DNA from: Gemmatimonadota bacterium
Lineage (GTDB): Bacteria; Gemmatimonadota; Gemmatimonadetes; Palauibacterales; Palauibacteraceae
Direction of reading: 5' to 3'
DNA: 40,998 nt
NCBI GenBank assembly: GCA_046758745.1
Contig: JBHIAV010000027.1
Coordinates: forward strand, 1-40,998
Made by a program: the position numbers and the translations under genes. Below, one piece after another: positions 22,386 through 36,732 of the stretch. Numbering within the stretch: the stretch's first letter is position 1; the number at the start of each line of letters is the position of its first letter. A model generated the notes under the pieces. It made no database searches, had not been told where the DNA came from, and saw only the letters and a program-made list of their open reading frames with translations.

Positions 22386-23432
22386 TCACGCCGCCCGGCG
22401 CAAGGCCAGTCCGACAGAGAGCATCAGCATGGGGGCGATCTCGTCGGCCCGTCGGTCGTCCAGAGCCCCCGGATTCACCTGGAGCCTCTCCACCGGGCTC
22501 GCGATCTTCGTCTCGACGCGGAGCCGCTCCGCCAGCGCTTCGGCGAGACCCGGCACACGGACGCCACCGCCGCACAGGTAGAGGCGTCCGAGACGGGCCC
22601 CCAGCTCCTGCGTCTCCAGGAAGGCGGTGGCCCGCTCGACGCCCCGCGCCACTTCCTGCGCCCGCTCGAAGAGGAACTCCCGAAGCCGCTCGTCCGGGCC
22701 CTCCCCACGGAGGATGGACTCCGCCTCGTCCGCCCGCATCCCCCTCTCCCGCTGCAGATCGAGCGAGAGCCGGCGGGTGCCGAAGGTCAGGTCGCGGGTG
22801 AGGACGGGGACCCCTTCCTCGAGCAAATTCACGTTGGTGGTCTCGTGACCGATGCTCACCAGACCGGCGAGGCCCGTCATCGCCTCAGGATAGTTGACCT
22901 CGAGCCCGTTGTGCAGGGCGAACGCGTCGACGTCCACGATGAGGGGGTTGAGGTTGGCCTCCTCGAGTAGCGCGATCTTGTTCTCGACCAGCTCGCGCTT
23001 GGCAGCCACGAGGAGGACGTTCATCTGCAACCCCTCGCCGTCCGGATCGGTGATCTCGAAGTCGAGCTGCACGCTGTCCATGTCGAATGGGACGTGCTGC
23101 TCGGCTTCCCAGCGGATCACGTCGCGCGCGTCCGACTTCTTCATCCGATCCATCTGAATCGGCTTGATGATGACGTCGCGCCCACCCACGCTGGCGACCA
23201 CGTCGCGATCGGCGATCGCTTCCTCCACGAAGATCGCATCGATCGTCTCGGCGACCAGGCCGGGATCCATGACCTCACCCTCGACGATGGCGTCTCCACC
23301 GAGAGGCCGGACGACCACCCGTTCGAGCTGCGGTTCTTCCTTGGAGTGATCGATGATGGCGACCTTGATGAACCCGCTTCCGACGTCAAGGCCGACCGTT
23401 CGCTTCCTGCGGCCGAGACCGAACAAGGTCAT
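22386..23432 (-). CDS. pilM: type IV pilus actin-like protein
   Basis: VGLDVGS, EAEQHVPF, LLVAAK, DVDAFAL, LCGGG, SVGLALR; ATG at 23432. Confidence 0.95.
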   Translation of the reverse strand: MTLFGLGRRKRTVGLDVGSGFIKVAIIDHSKEEPQLERVVVRPLGGDAIVEGEVMDPGLVAETIDAIFVEEAIADRDVVASVGGRDVIIKPIQMDRMKKSDARDVIRWEAEQHVPFDMDSVQLDFEITDPDGEGLQMNVLLVAAKRELVENKIALLEEANLNPLIVDVDAFALHNGLEVNYPEAMTGLAGLVSIGHETTNVNLLEEGVPVLTRDLTFGTRRLSLDLQRERGMRADEAESILRGEGPDERLREFLFERAQEVARGVERATAFLETQELGARLGRLYLCGGGVRVPGLAEALAERLRVETKIASPVERLQVNPGALDDRRADEIAPMLMLSVGLALRRAA

Positions 23433-23483
23433 CGGGGCACACCGCCGCTGAACGAGACATTCGCGGCAAGGCGGGACCGGGCA

Positions 23484-23513
23484 ATCATAGGCTCCCTGTC
23501 TTTCCTCTGTCAA
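23484..23513 (-). promoter_or_regulatory. sigma70-type promoter for pilMNOPQ
   Basis: -35 TTGACA (23513-23508), 18-nt spacer, -10 TATGAT (23489-23484), ~50 nt upstream of the pilM ATG. Confidence 0.75.
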
Positions 23514-23694
23514 TCACCGCCGCGGTCCACCGCGTGCGCACGCAGAAGGGTTCCGTCGCCGGCCCGGACGCGAAGTTCGGCTTTCGTGGCTCGCAGTCGT
23601 GGGAGCCATCCGGCCGGCGGCGCCTAACCTGCCGCCGGTGGATGCGGCACGCAACCGTCCGCCGCCGCCCGCCGCGGTCATCGCTCTGCGTTCT

Positions 23695-24564
23695 CTAGTT
23701 GCGAAGGGGTATGTCGTACTGAATCGAGCGCTGCACGTTGAAGCGGTTCGCCTGATCACCCAGCGCCACGGCCGTGACGCGCACCGAACGCACGTTGGGG
23801 AAAGCGGCGACGGCCACCGTGGACTGTACGGTACTATCGGCCATCACGTAGCTGAACGCGGCTCCGTTCTGGAACGGCGAGACGAGCTCCTGCGAGCCGC
23901 GCCACAGCGCCTGCCCGGTCCCGAACCCGGAGGAGGCGAAGCGATAGGTGAGGCGCCCGTACTCACGCACGAGCGATCCGCGGTCCGGCACTCCCTGAGC
24001 GAAGTTGCCCTGCCAGCCGGTGACAGTGCGGTAGTAGACGTCCGCCGACGTCGCAGGCGCGCCGAGGCCGGTGCACGTGGCCTTCGGCGTGGCGCCGGTC
24101 GAACCGACCACGCCCGTCCAGCCGTCGGCGTACACGAAGGCGGAGTCGTACGGCCCGGAATAGGCCGTTCCGGAAAATCCGGTGACCAGGTTGGCGTTGG
24201 AGACGCTGTCGTACACGAACAGCGTCGCTTCATCGGCCCCGGTCGAGTCGCACACCACGGCTCGGAGGACGTCGAACCGGAAGGAGACCGAGTCCGGCGT
24301 GGCCGCGAGGAGGTCGCCCGGCGAAGCCATGCGTAGCTCGGCGGACATCAGGTCCACCGCCGCGCGCAGGCTCTGCTGTGCGTAGATCACATCGTCGTTC
24401 TTGCCATAGAAGCGGTTCTGGCTGAGAAGCAGGGACATCACCGCGGCGCCCAGAACCCCGGTGATCACGATGGCGATGAGCATCTCGACCAGCGTGAAGC
24501 CGCCGTGGTGGCGTCCGCCGCTCGGCGGCAAGATCCGATTGCTCTTCATCCTCATCCTCGGCAT
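23695..24564 (-). CDS. PilW-like minor pilin (start uncertain among three ATGs)
   Basis: Class III signal G|FTLVEMLIA; long pilin-like helix; Cys pair; order fimT-pilV-pilW. Confidence 0.8.
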   Translation of the reverse strand: MPRMRMKSNRILPPSGGRHHGGFTLVEMLIAIVITGVLGAAVMSLLLSQNRFYGKNDDVIYAQQSLRAAVDLMSAELRMASPGDLLAATPDSVSFRFDVLRAVVCDSTGADEATLFVYDSVSNANLVTGFSGTAYSGPYDSAFVYADGWTGVVGSTGATPKATCTGLGAPATSADVYYRTVTGWQGNFAQGVPDRGSLVREYGRLTYRFASSGFGTGQALWRGSQELVSPFQNGAAFSYVMADSTVQSTVAVAAFPNVRSVRVTAVALGDQANRFNVQRSIQYDIPLRN

Positions 24565-26286: not shown

Positions 26287-26649
26287 TCAGTTGCCGCATG
26301 TGGGAGGCTGCGTTCCCGACGCACTGTCCGAGGCCGTGCAGGTGATGGTGGTCGCCTGGTGACTCGCGTGCGCTCCCCACCCGGTGGCGGTCGCGCTGTC
26401 GATCACCACGGTGACGCCCTCGCTCGTGTTGTACTCGCCGCTCGGCAGGGAGGCGGCGAAGGTGTCGTTGCGGGCGAAGTACGCCGCCTGCGCGGCGCCC
26501 AGGTTTCGAAGATCAGACTTCATGGCGGCGACGTAGGCCTTCTCCCGGGTCGCCGACACCTTCGGCAGGGCCACCCCTGCGAGGATCGCGACGATCAGAA
26601 GAACCACCAGCACCTCGATCAGGGTGAAGCCCCCCTCTCCGTGCGCCAT
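26287..26649 (-). CDS. second type IVa pilin (120 aa prepilin with a C-terminal Cys pair)
   Basis: GGAGG SD before ATG at 26649; G|FTLIEVLVV…P22; AMKSDLRNL…AYFA. Confidence 0.9.
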   Translation of the reverse strand: MAHGEGGFTLIEVLVVLLIVAILAGVALPKVSATREKAYVAAMKSDLRNLGAAQAAYFARNDTFAASLPSGEYNTSEGVTVVIDSATATGWGAHASHQATTITCTASDSASGTQPPTCGN

Positions 26650-26876: not shown

Positions 26877-28400
26877 TCACGGGGAACCCCTCGCCGGCAG
26901 CCAGATGAACGGAGGGGCGTCGTTGATGGGCTCGTAGTTCTCCATGATCGCCCCCCAGATCGTCGGGGCTCTCCACAGGTAGGCGAAGAGCAGTCGGCGC
27001 GCCTCGGCGTCGGCCGGGGCGGGTCCGAGCGCGAGGTCGATCTGGGTGACGATCAACGGAACACGGCGCGAACGGAGCTCGGCCGCCAGCCCGCTCTCAT
27101 CCCATCGGTCGCCCTCGAGCAGGACGCCGAAGGCGAACGGGTCGTTCAGGTACGGTCTCGTTCCCTCTCGCAGAACAGCCGGGAAGAGGATCGCGTCGAC
27201 GAGCGGGTAGCCGGGCTGTAGCCCTACAATCCGGTAATAATCCCGCTGGGCCGCCAGCTGCCGCAGATTCGCCACGCGGTCCGCGCCGAGCGCTACGCTG
27301 GCCGCACCGAGCCAGGCCACCAGAGCCCACACCAACGGGCGCGGCCCCGGGAACGCCCGGAGCTCGCCCTCCCCCGGGCTTCGGGCACGGACGATCGCGA
27401 GCAGCACCAGCGCGAAAAGGGGCTCCAGCAGATAGTTGACGCTCGCGCCGATCTTGCTCATCGCGGCCAGGTGCAGCGGCCAAGCGAGCGCCGCGTACAG
27501 CTCCGGGAATCGCGGCCGGAGGCCGCCGCGCACCATGAGGGCCACGAGGAGCAGAAGGGGGATCCACTGGGCGGGTACGCTGTCGGCGAGGGTGGATCGA
27601 ACACCGAAGAAACCAGCCGATCCCCGAAGCGATCCGAAGGCGTTGGCCAGGTAGCCGCCGCCGGTGGCGCGATCCAGGAGCAGGGTACCTAGCGTGGCCG
27701 CCGCGGCGAGCGCCCCCAGGAAGCCCACGGCGCGCAGGCGATGGCCGCCCACCAGCCAGGCGAGCCCGAGCGCGGCCGGGGCAGCCACGTAGCTCTGTTT
27801 CGTGAAGAAGGCGAGGAGGAAGAAGCCGGCGGCCGCGGCCCACCGGCCCGGGCTTCCGTCGCCCTTCTCCTCCCCGAGGACGCAGAGGATGCCCGCCGCG
27901 GTCCACAGCAGTCCCAGCGTGTCGACCTGGGCCGCACCCATCAGGTTGTATACGCCCGGATTGATGAGCAGCCCCCCGAGGAGCAGGGCGGTCCAGCTCC
28001 ACGGGACTCGCCTGCGGCGGGAGAGAGCCACCAGCATCCCGAGTACGCCGCCGGTTGCGGCAAGAGAGAGAAGACGCGGTGCGAAGTACGCCTCGGCCGC
28101 TCCGGTCACGGCCTGAAGCGCCGCCGACAGCCAGAAGAAGAGCGGGGGGTAAAGGGTGAGGACCAGGGGAGGGTGGGACCACGCATCGGCGGGATACATG
28201 GCACCGGTGGACCCCGTTTCCAGCAGGGCGGCCAGGCTCCCGAGCACCGGCCCCTCCGTGTACTGGAAGAGCACCTCGGACCGCAGGAGGCGGAGCGCGC
28301 CGTAGGCGAGTGCCACGACGACGAGGCCGGCGAAGACGCCGCCTACGACATGCGAGGTGACTCGGTCGGCGCGGCGGAGGGAAGCCCCGCCGTCATTCAC
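26877..28400 (-). CDS. polytopic membrane glycosyltransferase, probable GT-C fold
   Basis: Many TM segments; first-loop QYTEGP, YPPLF, QVD, FFTKQS; lies directly after the GT2 gene. Confidence 0.7.
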   Translation of the reverse strand: MNDGGASLRRADRVTSHVVGGVFAGLVVVALAYGALRLLRSEVLFQYTEGPVLGSLAALLETGSTGAMYPADAWSHPPLVLTLYPPLFFWLSAALQAVTGAAEAYFAPRLLSLAATGGVLGMLVALSRRRRVPWSWTALLLGGLLINPGVYNLMGAAQVDTLGLLWTAAGILCVLGEEKGDGSPGRWAAAAGFFLLAFFTKQSYVAAPAALGLAWLVGGHRLRAVGFLGALAAAATLGTLLLDRATGGGYLANAFGSLRGSAGFFGVRSTLADSVPAQWIPLLLLVALMVRGGLRPRFPELYAALAWPLHLAAMSKIGASVNYLLEPLFALVLLAIVRARSPGEGELRAFPGPRPLVWALVAWLGAASVALGADRVANLRQLAAQRDYYRIVGLQPGYPLVDAILFPAVLREGTRPYLNDPFAFGVLLEGDRWDESGLAAELRSRRVPLIVTQIDLALGPAPADAEARRLLFAYLWRAPTIWGAIMENYEPINDAPPFIWLPARGSP

Positions 28401-29373
28401 CCGCTGCCTCGCGACTCAGCGAAGAGGAATCTCCGTCCGGCCGACCCGGAGGGAGATTCCGGTACCGCCTGACCACGAAAGCGGGTCTCGCTTTCGTCTC
28501 GTTGTAGATCCGGCCCACATACTCGCCCATGATCCCGAGGGCGAGAAGCTGCACTCCCCCCAGGAAGAGGATGGAGGTCATCACGGAGGCCCACCCCGGT
28601 ATCGCCGCACCGGTGACCAGCTTGTGGTACAGGACGTTCAGCATGACCACGAAGGCGACTCCGGAAACGAGGAATCCGAGGACCGTGGCCAGACGAAGGG
28701 GCACCTCTGAGAAGGCGAAGAAGGCATCGGTGGCCAGGCGGAGCAGCTTGACCGGGCTCTGGCGCGGCGCTCCCGCGTAGCGGGCCGCCCGCTCGAACTC
28801 GATCCCGATTTGCCGCCCCCCCACGTACGCTCGCAGTCCGCTCACGTACCGACTGCGCTCGGGCATCCGGTTGATGAGCTCGACAACCGAGCGGTCCATG
28901 AGCGAGAAGTTCCCGGCGTTGGCCGGGATTTCCAGCGGGCTCAGCCGGCTCAGGATCGAGTAGAAGAGGGAGAAGAGCCGCCTCTTGACCCACCCTTCCT
29001 TCCGCTCCTTCTTGACCGCATACACCACATCGTAGCCCTCCTCCCATTTCTGCACGAGAGAGGGAATGACCTCCGGCGGGTCCTGAAGGTCCCCGTCGAG
29101 AAGAACCACCGCGTCCCCATCCGCCACGGAGAGCCCTGCTGCGATAGCCAGCTGCTGGCCGAAGTTGCGTGACAGGTGAACGGCGCTCACCCGTGAGTCG
29201 GCTTCTGTGAAGGCTTGGATGATATCCGGCGACCGATCGCTGCTACCGTCGTCCACGTAGATGATGCGCCACTCGTGCGGCAGCGACTCGAGCGCGGCGC
29301 AGAGGCGCCGGTGCAGCTCCTCGAGGATGGCCTCCTCCTGATAGATCGGAACGACAGCGTGTACCGACTTCAA
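28393..29373 (-). CDS. GT2 polyprenyl-phosphate glycosyltransferase (GtrB/CsbB/DPM1-like)
   Basis: VVPIYQEE, VDDGSSD, SRNFGQQ, DGDLQDPP, two C-terminal TMs, GEYVGRIY; TTG at 29373 overlaps the upstream stop after a GGAGG SD. Confidence 0.92.
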   Translation of the reverse strand: MKSVHAVVPIYQEEAILEELHRRLCAALESLPHEWRIIYVDDGSSDRSPDIIQAFTEADSRVSAVHLSRNFGQQLAIAAGLSVADGDAVVLLDGDLQDPPEVIPSLVQKWEEGYDVVYAVKKERKEGWVKRRLFSLFYSILSRLSPLEIPANAGNFSLMDRSVVELINRMPERSRYVSGLRAYVGGRQIGIEFERAARYAGAPRQSPVKLLRLATDAFFAFSEVPLRLATVLGFLVSGVAFVVMLNVLYHKLVTGAAIPGWASVMTSILFLGGVQLLALGIMGEYVGRIYNETKARPAFVVRRYRNLPPGRPDGDSSSLSREAAGE

Positions 29374-31088
29374 TGCTCCTCCTGCCTCCTCCGGGAGGCG
29401 GTTTTCGGGCCCGGCTGTCCGGGCTCGCCGGATTCCTTCCATACGTACAGCCCGACCAGCTCGACTTCGTCCACTGCGGCTGCGAGGACCGGTCTCACGT
29501 TGTTGTAGATCCCCCACTCCCTCGCCCCGAACACCGCCTTTCGCGCCACCAGGAGGTAGTACGGGGGGGGCCATTCCTGAGAGATGCGAATGTCTTCCCG
29601 TAGCAGGCGATAGGCCTGCAGGCTGCGGAAGTAGTCCGACCGCGGGAAGGTGGCGAGCTGCGCGTCCTCGGGAAGGTACTCGTTGACGCGCTCGAGGAAG
29701 TCGGGGGTCACCGCATCGTACCAGTAGCTGACCTCCATCCCGATCCTGGCCGCACCCCTAGGGCCGCCGATCACCTCGTTGTAGTAGGAGAGGTAGAACG
29801 GGGCGATCCGTGTCAGCTGCAGATAGGGGGGATAGAAGAAGAGCAGCCCGAGGAGCAGCGTGGCGAGGACGCCGGCCCGCGCCGGGAGCACCCTGCCGAG
29901 CCGGGCGTGGAACGCCCCGAAGCCGCGCCCGGCGAGCAGTGCCAGGAACGGGAACATCGGCAGGAAGAGACGAACGCCGTCGTGGTTCGGGGATGATGGG
30001 AGGGCGAGGAGCGCCCAGAAGAAGACGATCATCGCGAGGCAGAGCCCGCCCATCGCGTTTCGTCCTGGCCGCGCGAGCGACCGAGCCGCTCCAAAGATCG
30101 CCAGGACGAGGAGGGCGAGCGGGACGGTCACCACCGTCATGACGATCGGGTGGTGCCACGGAACCACGTACTCGTACTGCGTCCCCAGATAGTAGGTGTT
30201 GATCGGGACCGACTCCTGGCGGGAGAGGCTCTCGGAGAAGAGCCGGGCCGCGTAGCCGGCCGGATCGTGCCAGGCGAGCGGGTTCAGGAGGTACGAGACG
30301 GCCAGGCCGCCCGCGATCCACCCGACGAACGCTAGCGCTGCACGCGCGCTGCGTCGATAGACGAGGAGCCAGCCCAGCAGCGGAAGCGGGAGGAGGTATC
30401 CCGTGAACTTCGTCCCCATCGCCAGGCCGAGGCCGACCGCTCCCACGACCAGGTAGCCTCGCCTTCCCTCCAGCAGGTAGAGGGCGAGCCCGGCCGACGC
30501 GACGAACCAGAAGAGGGTGAGCGGCGTGTCGGTGGCGGCGATGTGCGCGTGTCCGACTGCCCGCGGTAGCAGGAGGAGGGAGAGACCGGCGGCCGCGCCG
30601 CTCGTCGTGCCCCAGACCCTTCCCCCGACCCAGGTCGCGCCGCCGACGAGGAGCGCGAACCACACGAGCGAAGCCAACCGGAAGCCGCGGATCGGGTCGA
30701 GCCAGCGCGACGAGATCCACTCCGCCAGCGCCATCCCCTCCTTGTACACCGGAGGATGCGGATTCCAGTAGTGCTCGGCGTCCCACACCTCCCGTATGCG
30801 TTCAGCGCTCGCGAGCGAGCGCCGCTCCGGCCCCCGGGTCACGGCCGCGGTCCACTCCTGGATGCGGCTGGCCGAGTCGAAGTACCGCGGTTCATCCCAG
30901 GTCAGCCCGACCCGCCCGAGACCGGGCAGCAGCCAGATGAAGGCGACGACCGCCAGCGCCACGCTCATCAGCACTGGAGATCGCGCCCGCTCCTCTCCAC
31001 CGTCGACAGAGCCGCCCCCCCCGGCGAACGGCCGTCCTCCCGGGTCCATCTGAGCCGCTCCCGCAGGAGCCCTCGTGCCGCCGGTCAT
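29370..31088 (-). CDS. ArnT/PMT-like GT-C membrane glycosyltransferase (paralog A)
   Basis: TWDEPRY, HPP, HIAATD, TKFTG, PWHHP, HDGVRLFLP, SYYNEVIGG; ~11-13 hydrophobic segments. Confidence 0.82.
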   Translation of the reverse strand: MTGGTRAPAGAAQMDPGGRPFAGGGGSVDGGEERARSPVLMSVALAVVAFIWLLPGLGRVGLTWDEPRYFDSASRIQEWTAAVTRGPERRSLASAERIREVWDAEHYWNPHPPVYKEGMALAEWISSRWLDPIRGFRLASLVWFALLVGGATWVGGRVWGTTSGAAAGLSLLLLPRAVGHAHIAATDTPLTLFWFVASAGLALYLLEGRRGYLVVGAVGLGLAMGTKFTGYLLPLPLLGWLLVYRRSARAALAFVGWIAGGLAVSYLLNPLAWHDPAGYAARLFSESLSRQESVPINTYYLGTQYEYVVPWHHPIVMTVVTVPLALLVLAIFGAARSLARPGRNAMGGLCLAMIVFFWALLALPSSPNHDGVRLFLPMFPFLALLAGRGFGAFHARLGRVLPARAGVLATLLLGLLFFYPPYLQLTRIAPFYLSYYNEVIGGPRGAARIGMEVSYWYDAVTPDFLERVNEYLPEDAQLATFPRSDYFRSLQAYRLLREDIRISQEWPPPYYLLVARKAVFGAREWGIYNNVRPVLAAAVDEVELVGLYVWKESGEPGQPGPKTASRRRQEEH

Positions 31089-32848
31089 TCGGTCCGGTAG
31101 ACCCGAAGCAGCGGCACCCCCCGCACTGCGAGCTTGTAGAACGGGGCACCGCCGAACCGAGTCAAAGCCCGGTCGATGGACGTGAACTGCGCCCTCCGGT
31201 TGAGCACGAAGACGTAGTCGGCATCGCGGGGAGGACGCAGGTGCGTCACGGCCACGAGGCTACGCGGATCCTCACAGGCGATCGTGCGAACCGTTCCGTC
31301 GGACAGCTCGAGGGCCGTCTCGACCACCCACGACCTCGGCGCATCTCCCACCGCCTGGTAGAAGCAGAGCTCCTCGGTCAAGAAGCCGCCATGGATCACG
31401 GCGTCCGGTGGGATCCGTTCGCGGAGCTCGGCGAGAACGGACGGGCTGAGCGCCTCCTTGAGGTTCGTGACCTCGAGCCCTCTGGCCGCGGCACCTCGGA
31501 TCCCACCGATCAGGACGTTGAAGTACGAGAGCTGATGGGGATGGTACTGAACCGTCCGCAGGCCCGGGAGGGCGAACAGCGCGAGGAACACGAGCGCGCC
31601 TACAAGGTCGCCGCTCGCACCCGTAGCGGCGCTGCGCCGTGTGATCCAGTCCGAGAGCGCGCCGCACCCGATCCCGCTCAGCACGCACAGGAAGGGGAAG
31701 AGGGGAAGAAACAGCCTGATGCCGTCGTGCAACGGCGCCGCCGGTACGAGAAGAGCGCCGTACAGAACGACCGCGTTGAGCAGCGTGAGGGGCACGAGGC
31801 GCGATCCGCGCCATCTTGACAAGCCGGCCGCCATGGCGAGCAGGATGGGGATCGGCACGACGATCGCCGTCCACACGAACGGATAGTGCCAGGGTGCACG
31901 AAAGACGTAAAGCTCACCAAAATATTCGGTTACGATCTGGGCCGCCTCGTCGGCCGATCGGTTCACGCCGGTGGCGAGGTATTCGCGTATCCCCTCCACG
32001 GGCCCGACCCACAGGGCCGGGTCCACCGCGAAGAAGACCACGATGGCGGCCGCGGCGAGGATTGCCGTGGCCCGCAGGTCGAGCCGGCGACGGTGCAGGA
32101 GCCAACCTCCGAGCACAACCACCAGGAGCACGCCCGAGAACTTGGTGGCGCAGGCGGCGCCGAGCAGAAGTCCCGAGGCAACCAGCCAGCGGTCGTCGTC
32201 CGTGCGCAGATACGCCTCCAGGGCGCTCACGCACCAGAACCAGAAGGCGGCGAGGAAGAGGTCGGTGTGAGCCAGGTGTCCGTACGCGAAGAGCGCGGGG
32301 ATCGTCAGGGTGCTCGCTCCCGCCGCGAGTCCCGAAAGGCGGGACCCGGTGGCCCGTGCCGTCACCGCGGCCACGGAGGCCACCAGCGCTCCGTACGTGA
32401 GGAGCACGGCCCCGCGATACGCGGTCAGGGGATCGACCCAACCCTTCAGCGCCAGGTAGGAAAGGCCGCTGAGCTCCCGCGACAGAGGCGGATGCGTCAC
32501 CCGGACGGGCAACCAGCGCCAGTGCTCGAAGACCTCGGTCCGACCCAGGGCCTCGGTGGGCGCTCCCCCCAGCACGGCCTCCAAGAGCTTGTGGGCCCAC
32601 GCGATCTGGCGCAGGGAGCTGTGGAAGTAGAGCCCCACGTCACTGGCGATCCCGTAGTCGCGAGCGGTGAGGAAGGCGGCCGCGGTAGCGAAGAGGAAGA
32701 AGCCGAGGACCAGCCACCCGGTCCCGCCGGGGGGGATCTCGAACTCAACGTGCCGAGAGTCGGGACCAGGCATGGGGCCACCGGGCGCACGGCGGGAGGC
32801 CGCGCCGCCTGCCGTCCGGTGCGAGCCGTGGTCGCCACGCAGTCCCAT
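31085..32848 (-). CDS. ArnT/PMT-like GT-C membrane glycosyltransferase (paralog B; start uncertain, 32848 or 32773)
   Basis: HPP, HLAHTD, TKFSG, PWHYP, HDGIRLFLP, SYFNVLIGG; colinear with paralog A. Confidence 0.8.
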   Translation of the reverse strand: MGLRGDHGSHRTAGGAASRRAPGGPMPGPDSRHVEFEIPPGGTGWLVLGFFLFATAAAFLTARDYGIASDVGLYFHSSLRQIAWAHKLLEAVLGGAPTEALGRTEVFEHWRWLPVRVTHPPLSRELSGLSYLALKGWVDPLTAYRGAVLLTYGALVASVAAVTARATGSRLSGLAAGASTLTIPALFAYGHLAHTDLFLAAFWFWCVSALEAYLRTDDDRWLVASGLLLGAACATKFSGVLLVVVLGGWLLHRRRLDLRATAILAAAAIVVFFAVDPALWVGPVEGIREYLATGVNRSADEAAQIVTEYFGELYVFRAPWHYPFVWTAIVVPIPILLAMAAGLSRWRGSRLVPLTLLNAVVLYGALLVPAAPLHDGIRLFLPLFPFLCVLSGIGCGALSDWITRRSAATGASGDLVGALVFLALFALPGLRTVQYHPHQLSYFNVLIGGIRGAAARGLEVTNLKEALSPSVLAELRERIPPDAVIHGGFLTEELCFYQAVGDAPRSWVVETALELSDGTVRTIACEDPRSLVAVTHLRPPRDADYVFVLNRRAQFTSIDRALTRFGGAPFYKLAVRGVPLLRVYRTE

Positions 32849-32873
32849 CTCGCCTTCCCGGCCTACCACCGGT

Positions 32874-33755
32874 CTACCATTCGAGGTCGGGCCGTCCAGC
32901 CGCCTGCTCCGATCCGCTCCGGGCGTCGCTTCCGGCATCGCGGCGCCCGGCGCACTCGGCCTCCGTGCCCTCATCCCCGGCGGCTGTGACGGTGCTCCGC
33001 CCACCGCCGTCGGTCGCGGGGCGGCACACCGCGACCAGGGAAAGGCCGAGCGGGAGCCGTCCCCGCCGCACCGACGTCACCTCCCACCGGCAGAGTCGGT
33101 AGAGTGCCTCGTTCGCCCATGCCGGCAGCGGGTAGAAATCATCCCGGCGCATCGCGCCGGGCAACAGGCGCGCCCGAACCCGCTTCGCCCAACGAACGAG
33201 CCAGGCGACCGGAAAGACGGTGGCAAACCCGTAGCACAGCTGCACGACCGACAGGCCGTTCTCACGCAGCTTTCTCTCCAGCTCCTTGCGGGTGTAGCGG
33301 CGTTTGTGGTGCAGCACCTCATCGTGGGGGGACCACAGGAAACGGTGCGCGGGCACCGTGATGAGGCAGACCGCACCGGGGCTCGAGATTCTCCGCATCT
33401 CCCGGATCGCCGCAGCGTCATCCTCCAGGTGCTCCAGCACGTCGAGCACCAGCACCGCATCGAGGCTGCCGTCGGCGATCGGGAGCTGCAGGCAGGAGGC
33501 CCGCACGAGCCGCTCCACGCGGCGGGCACTGGAGTAGCGGATCGCCTGCGGCTCGTGCTCGAAGCCGTAGGCCACGGCGGCGAGGGGGAGTCCCGCCAGC
33601 ATCTGCCCCGTTCCGCTCCCGAGGTCCGCGATCCGAGGCCTGGACCCCGGGACGACGAACTCCTCGAGGAGCGCGTACACGTAGTCCCGCTTGAGACGGA
33701 ACCACCAGTACCGTACCTCAATCTCGAACATCCCGCGGTATTGCTCGGGCTCCAT
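32874..33755 (-). CDS. class I SAM-dependent methyltransferase
   Basis: DLGSGTG, DVLEHLEDD, ITVPA, WSPHD…HKRRY. Confidence 0.88.
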   Translation of the reverse strand: MEPEQYRGMFEIEVRYWWFRLKRDYVYALLEEFVVPGSRPRIADLGSGTGQMLAGLPLAAVAYGFEHEPQAIRYSSARRVERLVRASCLQLPIADGSLDAVLVLDVLEHLEDDAAAIREMRRISSPGAVCLITVPAHRFLWSPHDEVLHHKRRYTRKELERKLRENGLSVVQLCYGFATVFPVAWLVRWAKRVRARLLPGAMRRDDFYPLPAWANEALYRLCRWEVTSVRRGRLPLGLSLVAVCRPATDGGGRSTVTAAGDEGTEAECAGRRDAGSDARSGSEQAAGRPDLEW

Positions 33756-36148
33756 CAGGGCGCTCGCAGTCTATGGCCGGTCGGTCGGCCGGCGAACAGG
33801 GCGATCGCCGCCAGGAGAGAGGCCGCGCTGATCCAGCCGCCGACCCGGAAGCTCGCCGGCGCGAAGCGGAACGCCACCTCGCTCTCGCCCGCCGGCACGA
33901 CCACGGCGCGGAAGACGCCGTTCGCCCGGTGGATCCGCGCCGGTCGGCCGTTCACCTCGACCCTCCACCCCGGGTAGAACCGGTCCGTGAGAACGAGGAG
34001 CATCGGGCGGTTCGCGCGGGCACGCAGACGGACTCGATTGTTCCGGAAGAGCATGCCCCAGAGCTCGCCCTCGGCCGATCCGCCGGCCGCGGATCCCGAG
34101 GGCAGCGGAGGCACCTCTTCCAGCACCACCCGCCGCTGGAGAGGAAAGTCCGGCTGAAGCGCCCGCCGCAGCGCCTCGGCGGGGGAGCCGGCCACCTCGT
34201 GCTGCGCGACGAGATACGCTCTCGGCACCGGGTCCTGGACCTCGTAGACCCGGATCGGGAGATCAGGGCTCGTGGCCACGAGCTCAAGTCCGTCCAGCGA
34301 GCCACCGAACTGCGTCGCGTCGGCGTAGTAGCGCACGTTCGTGGCCCGCAGGATCCGGACCGGGTCGGGGGTCCACTCGTGCAGCGCCGCCTCGATGAGT
34401 AGCGAGACCGAGGCGAGCTCCACCCCCTCGAGGCCATCCTGGGCCAGATGGCCGAACAGCAGACCCGCGTTGGGGCCGAGGGTCTGGAAGTCGAGATACA
34501 TGTTGGTGAGCTCCCACGCCCCCTTCACCGTCACGATGCTCCCCATGGCGGCGGAGAGGGAAGAGCCCCGGAACCGGTAGGCCTGCCGGTCGGGTCCCCG
34601 CTCGGTCAGCAGCTCCGACGTCCAGGGAGGAGTCTCGTACACTGCCGCGTCCACCATGGGGTTGACGGCCCGGTGCGCCAGGACCAGGTCGGCCGCCAGG
34701 AGGAGCGTCGCGACCAGGGCGAGCGCACGCGCGCCGAGGCGGGCCCGCGCCCGCACGGCCGCCAGGACGAGAATCGCCCCCACAGCGCCGCTCACCCCGA
34801 GCGCCTCCAGGGCGTACAGAGAACGCGAGCCATCCGGATCGCCGCACAGAAGCGCATCTCGAAGCCACGAGCCACAGGCGCGGGAGAGAGCGCCCCGGTC
34901 GAGGGCGAGGAGCGCGGCTACCGAAAGGTAGACGGCGAACAGACCGAGGCCGATCCACACGAGGCGTCGCGCTCGCTTTCCGCCAGCCAGCCAGGTCTCG
35001 ACGCCGTGCGCCGCCATCACCGGAAGCGCGAGGGCGGTGAGGAAGTAGAACTTCTCCGGATAGCGGAGAGGGCGGAGCAGCGGTACCCACTCGAAGAGGG
35101 CCGGATAGAGCGGCGTGTACCGGCCAAGCGCCAGAGCCACGCCCAGTAGCGCGGTGGCGCCCCAGAATGCGAGCCACCGGCGCGACTTCGGCTCGAGCGC
35201 TCCGTTGAGCGCGAACAGGATCACCAGCGAGCCGGGGTAGATGCTGAGGAGCCACGGAACGCCTGCCGTGGCCATGTTCCGCGTGGTGAACCCGTGCACC
35301 CCGGCGGCGAGCGCGGGCGGGAGAGCGAAGTGGAGCAGGCTCCTCGGCTCGAGCGAGCGCCGCGCCACATACTCCATGCCGATATCGAGCGTACGCACGG
35401 ACTCCCGGATGTACTCCAGGAACGGGAGGAGCTGGACCGCCGCGAGGCCGAGTGCCAGCGCGCCGACGCCCGCGAAGGCGACGAGCTGGCGCCTCCGACC
35501 CATGTCGGCCCGCTCCACCCCGACGAGCCCGTGCAGGAAGAGCAGGAGGAGGCCGATCGCCAGCATCTGGGGCGCTCCGCCGAGGAACGCCACCACGCTC
35601 AGTCCGGCGAACACGACGGCGTCGCGGCGGCGCCCGGCGCTTACGAAGCGGTCCCACACGAGCATCAGCCAGGGGAGCCACGCCACCGTCTGCAGGTTGT
35701 TCGGGAAGTTCGCGATCGAAACGAAGTACCCCCCCAGCATGAACCCGAGCGCTCCGAAGAGCGCTGGGGCGGGGGCATGACCCCAGCGTCGCAAGAGCGT
35801 CCACATCCCCACCCCTGCGAGCGGGAAGTGAAGGACGAGAAGGAGGTTGAACGCGAAAGGCAGCGGCAGGAGGTAGAGAACGGCGCTCGGCGGGTACAGG
35901 ACGCCCGGCTGGAGTGAGGCGAAGAAGGGCTCTCCGTTCACGACCCACGGGTTCCACAGCGGAAACTCTCCGGCACGCACCGATGCCGCCAGGTACACCT
36001 TCATCGGGTAGAAGAACGGGGCGATGTCTCGGCTGAAGAAGGCCTCTCCCCCGAACAGGGCGCTGTGGAAGAGGAGCCCGCACGGCAGCAGCAGCGCCGG
36101 GAGCGCTACCAATCCGACCCGCCATCTCCCCGAAACGGGCGGGATCAT
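33755..36148 (-). CDS. YfhO-like polytopic membrane protein (GT-C glycosyltransferase)
   Basis: RD…FYP, PLWNP…GEPF, LYP, LRYPEKF, C-terminal DRFYPGWRVEVNG…FRAVVVPAG and a final TM. Confidence 0.82.
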   Translation of the reverse strand: MIPPVSGRWRVGLVALPALLLPCGLLFHSALFGGEAFFSRDIAPFFYPMKVYLAASVRAGEFPLWNPWVVNGEPFFASLQPGVLYPPSAVLYLLPLPFAFNLLLVLHFPLAGVGMWTLLRRWGHAPAPALFGALGFMLGGYFVSIANFPNNLQTVAWLPWLMLVWDRFVSAGRRRDAVVFAGLSVVAFLGGAPQMLAIGLLLLFLHGLVGVERADMGRRRQLVAFAGVGALALGLAAVQLLPFLEYIRESVRTLDIGMEYVARRSLEPRSLLHFALPPALAAGVHGFTTRNMATAGVPWLLSIYPGSLVILFALNGALEPKSRRWLAFWGATALLGVALALGRYTPLYPALFEWVPLLRPLRYPEKFYFLTALALPVMAAHGVETWLAGGKRARRLVWIGLGLFAVYLSVAALLALDRGALSRACGSWLRDALLCGDPDGSRSLYALEALGVSGAVGAILVLAAVRARARLGARALALVATLLLAADLVLAHRAVNPMVDAAVYETPPWTSELLTERGPDRQAYRFRGSSLSAAMGSIVTVKGAWELTNMYLDFQTLGPNAGLLFGHLAQDGLEGVELASVSLLIEAALHEWTPDPVRILRATNVRYYADATQFGGSLDGLELVATSPDLPIRVYEVQDPVPRAYLVAQHEVAGSPAEALRRALQPDFPLQRRVVLEEVPPLPSGSAAGGSAEGELWGMLFRNNRVRLRARANRPMLLVLTDRFYPGWRVEVNGRPARIHRANGVFRAVVVPAGESEVAFRFAPASFRVGGWISAASLLAAIALFAGRPTGHRLRAP

Positions 36149-36180: not shown

Positions 36181-36216
36181 AGAAAAGGGGCGCAGTGACG
36201 GAACCACTGCGCCCCT
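36181..36216 (-). terminator. intrinsic terminator downstream of the major pilin
   Basis: Perfect 12-bp inverted repeat AGGGGCGCAGTG/CACTGCGCCCCT with a 7-nt loop, followed on the minus strand by TTTCT. Confidence 0.8.
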
Positions 36217-36254: not shown

Positions 36255-36623
36255 TTACGGGGCCTTCTGGATCTTCCCCTCGATGGAGCTCCCCGACCCC
36301 GACTCCACCCAGAAAGTGTTTCCGGATGCCGTGTGCGACGCCGTGACGAGGTAGCCGGCGGCGGAGCCGCCCGAGCTGATCGCGATGCCCTGACTGGTGG
36401 TGAAGTTTCCGGTCGCCAGGGCCGCGGTGGCGTACGCTTGGTTGTCCGCGAAGTACGCCTCCATCGCCGACATCGCGTTCCGGACGTCGCTCTTCGCCGT
36501 GGCGTCGAACGCCTTCTCCTTGGTGCTGGCGAACTGCGGGATGGCGATGGCTGCCAGGATCCCGATGATCACCACCACGATGAGGAGCTCGATGAGGGTG
36601 AATCCCTTTGAGTTGCGGAGCAT
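36255..36623 (-). CDS. pilA: major type IVa pilin (122 aa prepilin, 115 aa mature)
   Basis: GGAGGG SD; MLRNSKG|FTLIELLIVVVIIGILAAIAIPQF; directly downstream of pilSR, with its own sigma54 promoter and terminator. Confidence 0.92.
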   Translation of the reverse strand: MLRNSKGFTLIELLIVVVIIGILAAIAIPQFASTKEKAFDATAKSDVRNAMSAMEAYFADNQAYATAALATGNFTTSQGIAISSGGSAAGYLVTASHTASGNTFWVESGSGSSIEGKIQKAP

Positions 36624-36716: not shown

Positions 36717-36732
36717 GGCAACCCGCGTGCCG
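36717..36732 (-). promoter_or_regulatory. sigma54 -24/-12 promoter of pilA
   Basis: CGGCACGCGGGTTGCC matches GGCACN5TTGC. Confidence 0.85.

Follow-up and report, generated by a model that had tools for sequence, protein, structure and literature searches.

Among the closest described counterparts of the locus studied here is TfpW of Pseudomonas aeruginosa (group IV, Pa5196/PA7), a single GT-C pilin arabinosyltransferase with a C-terminal TPR domain, a DDX motif and an unlinked D-Araf pathway. It modifies the pilin at T64/T66 (10.1101/2020.04.19.049825), and the glycans of TfpW and TfpO block pilus phages (10.1101/150227). The streptococcal YfhO-family enzymes PgtC2 and PgfM1, with a GtrB-type glycosyltransferase of family GT2, glycosylate protein Ser/Thr outside the membrane (PMC11092751). 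A third group is formed by the GtrA/GtrB/GtrC systems, such as CsbB/YfhO/GtcA and ArnC/ArnT (PMC5836110). We describe here a cassette of six genes (positions 26877-36148) which follows the pilin gene pilA in an uncultured member of the Gemmatimonadota (Palauibacteraceae). The named homologues of its proteins agree with this lineage (Candidatus Palauibacterales). The window that we have analysed, 40,998 nt, is one entire 41-kb contig of a 3.1 Mb genome which is 87% complete.

The cassette would work like TfpW and GtrB/PgtC2, and is a member of neither. It has in common with TfpW a GT-C gene placed directly after pilA, the association with one pilin allele and, presumably, a lipid-linked monosaccharide donor. 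It differs by having not one but four GT-Cs, together with a methyltransferase and a linked GtrB-type GT2: Pfam finds no TPR family in the four, and their motifs are RD, DV, DE and TE, not DDX. No DprE1/DprE2, the donor pathway for D-arabinofuranose, is found in the cassette, to which this search was limited. The streptococcal GtrB/PgtC2 and PgfS/PgfM1/PgfM2 systems also combine a GtrB-type GT2 with a YfhO-family GT-C; however they are Gram-positive, act on disordered Ser/Thr tracts of many proteins and have neither extra ArnT-like enzymes nor a linkage to pili. The NCBIfam equivalog scores are far below cut-off: 226 bits for PgfS (cut-off 500), to which the GT2 scores highest in NCBIfam, and 29 bits for PgfM2 (cut-off 1500). 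The GtrA/GtrB/GtrC systems are alike in donor chemistry and enzyme folds, but here we find four GT-Cs instead of one, a likely protein acceptor and no GtrA-type flippase, neither in the cluster nor in the genome as far as it is complete (87%). The Arn modification of lipid A is also different: ArnC reaches 199 bits (cut-off 529), less than PgfS, and no arnA/B/D-type gene is found among the six genes with Pfam and NCBIfam. Finally, PilA4 of Thermus thermophilus is an alignable pilin with glycosylated sites which match threonines of our PilA; its enzymes are not comparable, since the available text of PMC13039148 names no glycosyltransferase.

We consider it most likely that the products of the six genes coat the pilus with sugars, which they add singly outside the cytoplasm. 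A lipid-donor O-glycosylation of the adjacent PilA, with the YfhO-like enzyme as initiator and the ArnT-like enzymes extending the glycan, appears fairly probable. The pilin is likely to be the target, because the GT-C fold, the neighbourhood and the co-variation with the pilA allele have all been borne out.

The genes on the minus strand, where all features of the window given below are placed, have the order pilS, pilR, pilA, the six cassette genes, a second pilin, two fimT-like genes, pilV, pilW, pilM-N-O-P-Q, aroC and aroK. As stated in the original prediction, six co-directional genes come after pilA (36255-36623) and before the second pilin-like gene (26287-26649); all six open reading frames are intact. 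Their GC content at third codon positions is 0.82-0.87, similar to adjacent genes, and their codon use is host-like. The stop/start overlaps described earlier are present at four of the five internal junctions (1, 4, 4 and 8 nt), but the junction between the methyltransferase and GT-C2 is a gap of at least 25 nt, with a size set by the start chosen for GT-C2. The cassette codes for four membrane proteins of GT-C type, half of them recognised by their predicted fold and half by Pfam PMT_2, as well as a GtrB-type GT2 and an S-adenosylmethionine (SAM) methyltransferase. Pfam confirms that Wzy_C, GT4 and nucleotide-sugar families are missing among the six genes, as had been claimed. No epimerase is found among them with Pfam and NCBIfam, and PADLOC gives only a generic methyltransferase match. 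The location between two pilins is real in the window, but it is not conserved: the second pilin is absent from most cassette loci, and we have rejected this layout as a defining one. The constant borders in relatives are pilA upstream and fimT/minor-pilin genes downstream.

The YfhO-like protein (33755-36148, 797 aa), which we propose as the initiating pilin O-glycosyltransferase, scores 55.4 bits with Pfam YfhO (cut-off 28.5). Its predicted model (pLDDT 88.4) matches AftD (E 4e-9) and STT3 (Z 16.9). GT-C2 (31085-32848, with a start at 32848 or 32773) and GT-C3 (29370-31088) are ArnT/PMT_2-like: they have been assigned to GT-C by the PMT_2 cut-off (35.9 and 37.4 bits, cut-off 26.1). They are paralogues, as anticipated, about 30% identical and with common invariant D, HPP, TD, TK and HDG positions. 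The invariant residues of GT-C2, numbered from the 32773 start, are D45, H94-P95-P96, T170-D171, T210-K211 and H349-D350; those of GT-C3 are D65-E66, T186-D187, T226-K227 and H369-D370. The prediction of a heterodimer of both (score 0.00) speaks neither for nor against such a complex. GT-C4 (26877-28400) is an accessory protein of predicted ArnT fold which belongs to no Pfam family. Its model (pLDDT 92.5) superimposes on ArnT with Z 20.4 and a root mean square deviation of 5.4 over 423 aligned residues; Foldseek also places ArnT first (E 1.3e-5), followed only by other GT-Cs among the 18 matches counted at E <=0.001. Its E49 is invariant, D160 and K201 nearly so. An acidic residue in the first outside loop is thus invariant in all four GT-Cs: D41 in the YfhO-like protein (motif RD), D45 in GT-C2 (DV), D65-E66 in GT-C3 (DE) and E49 in GT-C4 (TE). 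Sequence searches of the PDB with the alignments were of no use: there was no match for the YfhO-like protein or GT-C4, and for GT-C2/3 there was yeast Pmt2 at E 0.67. The GT-C4 and GT-C2/3 profiles align weakly (89%), those of YfhO and GT-C2/3 do not (probability 0.85%).

The GT2 (28393-29373; Glycos_transf_2, with C-terminal membrane helices) is of the polyprenyl-phosphate glycosyltransferase type, as its sequence indicates, and is the proposed polyprenyl-phosphate sugar synthase. Its likeness to GtrB/CsbB, already noticed, is supported by the closest solved structures: sll0501 (E 6e-82), which we take to be GtrB, and then ArnC (E 6e-53). The accessory methyltransferase (32874-33755, 293 aa) is a class I SAM enzyme (Methyltransf_11, E 1e-14) from a widespread group, its Atlas neighbours being all unnamed class I methyltransferases.

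Of the 58 genomes in which pilR has a match, we have compared the DNA downstream of this gene in 46. Three layouts are found. Type A, that of the window, has pilA, YfhO, GT-C2, GT-C3 and GT2, plus optional genes. In type B, the sister allele type, the gene after pilA is a YfhO less related to that of the window (33-36% identical); GT-C2/3 and GT2 are absent, and one further GT-C is sometimes present. In the sister family, 2-5 multi-pass membrane proteins come before pilA; the last one has TPRs and weak matches to TMTC_DUF1736, below cut-off. The YfhO-like gene always adjoins pilA. The four core genes of the cassette are present in all 23 complete type A loci, which show six combinations of accessory genes: GT-C4 in 15, a fifth GT-C in 16 and the methyltransferase in 6. 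The GT-C3 profile has matches in 16 of 61 related genomes, exactly two in tandem in each, always in the pilus locus; this includes four pairs on other contigs than pilR, as found on inspection. The linkage to pilins proposed at the outset is therefore upheld by the neighbourhood.

A scan of named genomes for relatives of GT-C3 gave 73 loci, 46 of a close clade and 27 distant (this division and the next two counts were made by hand). The possibility that homologous cassettes are mostly unlinked to pilins does not apply to the close clade: 40 of its 46 loci have a pil gene, and the other six are contigs shorter than 6 kb which end inside the cassette. It does apply to the distant relatives (29-39% identical), with a weak pilin-like match nearby in just 2 of 27. 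These are found in Planctomycetota, Nitrospinota, Glassbacteria, one archaeon and some Gemmatimonadales, without the partner genes. Since most of them have neither pilin nor partner genes, the pilus link is a property of the close clade and does not extend to the enzyme family.

The pilin allele varies together with the cassette, as had been proposed. The type A cassette is accompanied by a pilin without cysteines and with a TTSxG motif in 27 of 27 loci, a pilin found in none of the 25 loci without the cassette. This count leaves out ten duplicate loci and one more, three loci that lack a major pilin and two in which pilA is frameshifted; type A loci are over-sampled in it, many having been found by GT-C3. 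The frameshifts, which may be real or assembly errors, are those of L034 (1603-1926) and L049 (1672-1902). In the pilA tree the type A, type B and TMTC pilins lie each on one side of a branch (99/93, 98/88 and 100/99), and the type A group includes two loci with a pilR only about 54% identical to that of the window. The YfhO genes of cassette-type pilins are likewise on one side of a branch (94). In the tree of the flanking pilR+pilM four changes are needed for type A, and a single clade is rejected (p-AU 1e-7; 25 of 54 rows). The pilA tree groups type A and the flanking tree rejects this grouping; therefore pilin and cassette form a unit that is moved or replaced as a whole. No single case is more telling than L032, whose relatives in the tree around it carry the cassette: it has lost all but an 86-aa remnant of GT-C3 (2214-2474), its genome has no other GT-C2/3 match, and its pilin has two cysteines and no TTS.

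PilA, the proposed acceptor, is a major type IVa pilin (N_methyl in Pfam, with pilin matches in the PDB). Its mature form has 115 aa, no cysteines and the motif T68-T69-S70, which all 30 type A pilins retain. It aligns with Thermus PilA4 (6XXD/8QQD) over about 100 residues (HMMER, E 4e-15), and by count on this alignment T59, T64 and T68 correspond to S59, S66 and S71, the three O-glycosylated sites of PilA4 (PMC13039148). The candidate sites lie in the same pilin region as those of TfpW. At matched pilR distance the C-domains are 62% identical in type A pilins, versus 49, 43 and 32% in the other types. The overall Ser+Thr content discriminates poorly between pilin types (0.29 versus 0.25, with overlapping ranges). 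N-glycosylation has been rejected: no WWD motif of the STT3/PglB/AglB type is found in any of the four GT-Cs, and Ser is the commonest residue at position 66 (15 of 30), so that related pilins do not preserve the window's N-F-T sequon.

The pathway could then proceed as follows. Judging from the function of its family, the GT2 would load one sugar on polyprenyl phosphate at the cytoplasmic side. An unlinked flippase would export the lipid-linked sugar; a UPF0104-type protein on contig C4 is our guess for this role. The YfhO-like enzyme would set the first sugar on a Thr/Ser of PilA past the long helix; T68 is the most probable site, with T64, T69 and S70 as possible ones. It is chosen as initiator because its gene always adjoins pilA, is shared by types A and B and occurs by itself in the sister allele type, and because the YfhO-family PgtC2 and PgfM1 glycosylate proteins. 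GT-C2 and GT-C3, which are always together, the optional GT-C4 and the fifth GT-C of relatives would add further sugars or act on further sites. The methyltransferase, being soluble, would act in the cytoplasm, probably on the donor sugar; this is the weakest step. In relatives the same slot is occupied by YfhO alone, by a Wzy_C+TPR gene of O-antigen-ligase type (L053) or by the TMTC/TPR GT-Cs of the sister family, which seem more similar to TfpW than the cassette GT-Cs.

Other explanations have to be weighed against pilin glycosylation. The cassette might serve a general extracytoplasmic protein O-glycosylation, GtrB/PgtC2- or Pgf-like, acting on many Ser/Thr-rich proteins and placed at pilA because the pilin is its most abundant substrate or through shared regulation. 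It counts in favour of this that relatives of TMTC and PMT type act as transferases on proteins in general, and that the family of GT-C2/3 is broad, with 16,531 representatives at E <=0.001. The streptococcal YfhO-family enzymes also act on many proteins (PMC11092751). Nevertheless three different GT-C sets follow each their own pilin clade, and a housekeeping role suits better the second, unlinked YfhO gene of this genome (contig C4), found in 23 of 24 genomes of the family with any pilin type; that gene may do such a job, or may supply donors and flippase. We think a general system rather unlikely. It is still less probable that the cassette decorates lipopolysaccharide (LPS), lipid A or another surface glycan in the manner of GtrABC/ArnT, with pilA as an exchange hot spot for surface genes. 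The close clade is never found apart from pili and is absent from the searched genomes which have lost pilA or carry other alleles; the cluster has no arnA/B/D-type gene, and a search of the genome for YdjC gave nothing. Such a target would agree with the closest folds, ArnT and AftD, with the glycosylation of lipoteichoic acid by CsbB/YfhO in Bacillus (PMC5836110) and with a cluster of YfhO, methyltransferase, GT2 and GT-C on contig C4, adjoining genes that read by eye as rpoN, lptB and kdsA.

The YfhO-like enzyme alone might modify PilA, while the other GT-Cs serve minor pilins or PilQ, or are not all catalytic. This seems to us very improbable. A YfhO without the GT-C2/3 pair or GT2 does flank pilA in 10 sister-type loci, and GT-C2 has DV where GT-C3 has DE; but the invariant acidic and basic residues of the two paralogues are the same, and the block GT-C2/GT-C3/GT2 follows the major pilin allele, whereas the set of minor pilins varies freely among cassette loci.

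Several observations weigh against the glycosylation of PilA by the whole cassette. The association between allele and cassette amounts to three independent contrasts on the starred branches, all in the same direction (p 0.25). Travelling together is not proof of an enzyme-substrate pair, because neighbouring genes are exchanged together whatever their function. Genome G015 carries a pilin of the sister type but lacks the YfhO that belongs to it. As for the sites, the position of T59 is Ser/Thr in just 3 of 30 cassette pilins and that of T64 in 21 of 30; S70 is shared by most pilins of the class, other Ser/Thr are invariant too, and TTSxG is also present in one pilin (L160) which comes from another order and is accompanied by a different cassette. 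In fold, GT-C4 is closest to ArnT, a lipid A enzyme. The GT-C families are not specific for pilins, as it follows from the distant relatives already described and from an unlinked paralogue of GT-C4 on contig C54. Finally, the single GT2 has to supply all four GT-Cs if no other source provides donors, and no GtrA-type flippase lies in the cluster, nor was PF04138 found in the 87% complete genome.

A more elaborate form of the pilin pathway can be put forward only tentatively: in the periplasm, YfhO would prime a Gram-negative pilin, PilA, and three to four further GT-Cs would build a branched, partly methylated glycan, the pilin being conserved, its disulfide lost and the variation displaced to the glycan. 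It may be likened to the stepwise assembly of lipid-linked sugars in the endoplasmic reticulum or to the synthesis of mycobacterial glycans. If so, swappable modules of pilin and cassette would form a class-wide system of phage evasion. An anti-phage role of the cassette glycan is only an analogy.

A full-text literature search, with subscription journals mostly outside it, brought up no work on glycosylated pilins of Gemmatimonadota, nor any on a pilin cassette of YfhO type or with several GT-Cs. If the proposed pathway is true, pilin glycosylation by GT-Cs extends from the single enzyme TfpW to a modular pathway of several enzymes, in an abundant and little-studied phylum, and several unassigned GT-C families gain a small defined acceptor, PilA T68-S70. 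It would also offer natural gene sets from minimal to maximal, which could be rebuilt in a laboratory host, and a testable case of glycan variation replacing pilin sequence variation under phage pressure.

The original prediction implies a more singular arrangement than we find. The cassette is indeed more elaborate than a single TfpW, but GT-C genes next to the major pilin are common in the class and the chemistry has tested precedents. In other orders we have searched 35 pilin loci, chosen from the best pilA matches, with home-made profiles: a full-length GT-C candidate is present in 18 of 25 main pilus loci and in 1 of 10 other pilin loci, figures which lean to pilus-linked matches because the profiles were built from pilin-flanking families. 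Many of these candidates have no Pfam family, and profile-profile comparison ties several to GT-C2/3 (93-98%). GT2 and methyltransferase genes recur in the cassettes of other orders, in changing order. One such cassette, between pilR and pilA, contains a 1019-aa membrane protein with a spermidine-synthase-like domain (L181, 2177-5236).

A sigma-54-type -24/-12 promoter-like site (36718-36732) lies upstream of pilA, below pilS-pilR. It is the single match in the window to the consensus; 0.08 were expected, and 8 of 100 shuffles had one. In 20 of 54 related loci a looser pattern lies upstream of pilA, at a distance of 124-175 nt. The interval between pilA and the cassette has a hairpin of 14 pairs followed by a T tract (36186-36216), likely a partial terminator; the scan gave six hairpins versus 4.2 in shuffles, and this one stands out by length and position only. 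We infer from the site and the hairpin a strong expression of pilA with read-through into the cassette. The second pilin-like gene (26287-26649; N_methyl in Pfam, two cysteines) is the first of the minor-pilin block and not a constant partner. There is no pilX-like gene between pilW and pilM (22386-24564), and several relatives have one. A second minor-pilin cluster of this genome is on contig C37.

Some other loci have features of their own. The genome of the window also has a stand-alone paralogue of GT-C4 (L195, contig C54, 7220-8749) and another of a sister-family GT-C (L196, contig C6, 5215-7029), with no pilin or GT2 found beside them. The cluster on contig C4 (L071, 3403-12375), whose neighbours were given above, contains two GT2, UPF0104/LPG_synthase_TM, YfhO, a methyltransferase, GT4 and a PMT_2 GT-C. 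The TMTC_DUF1736 profile found nothing in the genome of the window, and it matched no control genome either. In the sister family (L060-L070, L076) the GT-C-like genes lie between pilR and pilA, the final one being the TMTC/TPR protein; in 10 of 11 of their pilins, positions 66-67 of the mature form hold an N-X-S/T sequon. The Wzy_C+TPR protein of L053 (14692-17133) comes directly after the pilin. L056 and L057 are reduced pilus loci without pilA, pilN, pilO, pilP, pilQ and cassette. The type B locus L037 (3478-6602, 10628-11227) carries extra genes between pilR and pilA; they code for a methyltransferase-like protein, a membrane protein and a nuclease of the Uma2 family. Four tandem pilin genes without Cys precede a reshuffled type A cassette in L109 (2006-4789) and L118 (3348-5617), from a lineage with a pilR about 54% identical to that of the window. 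Finally, L106 (262-2899) is a hybrid: a GT2 and a TMTC-like GT-C come before pilA, and a full type A cassette comes after it.

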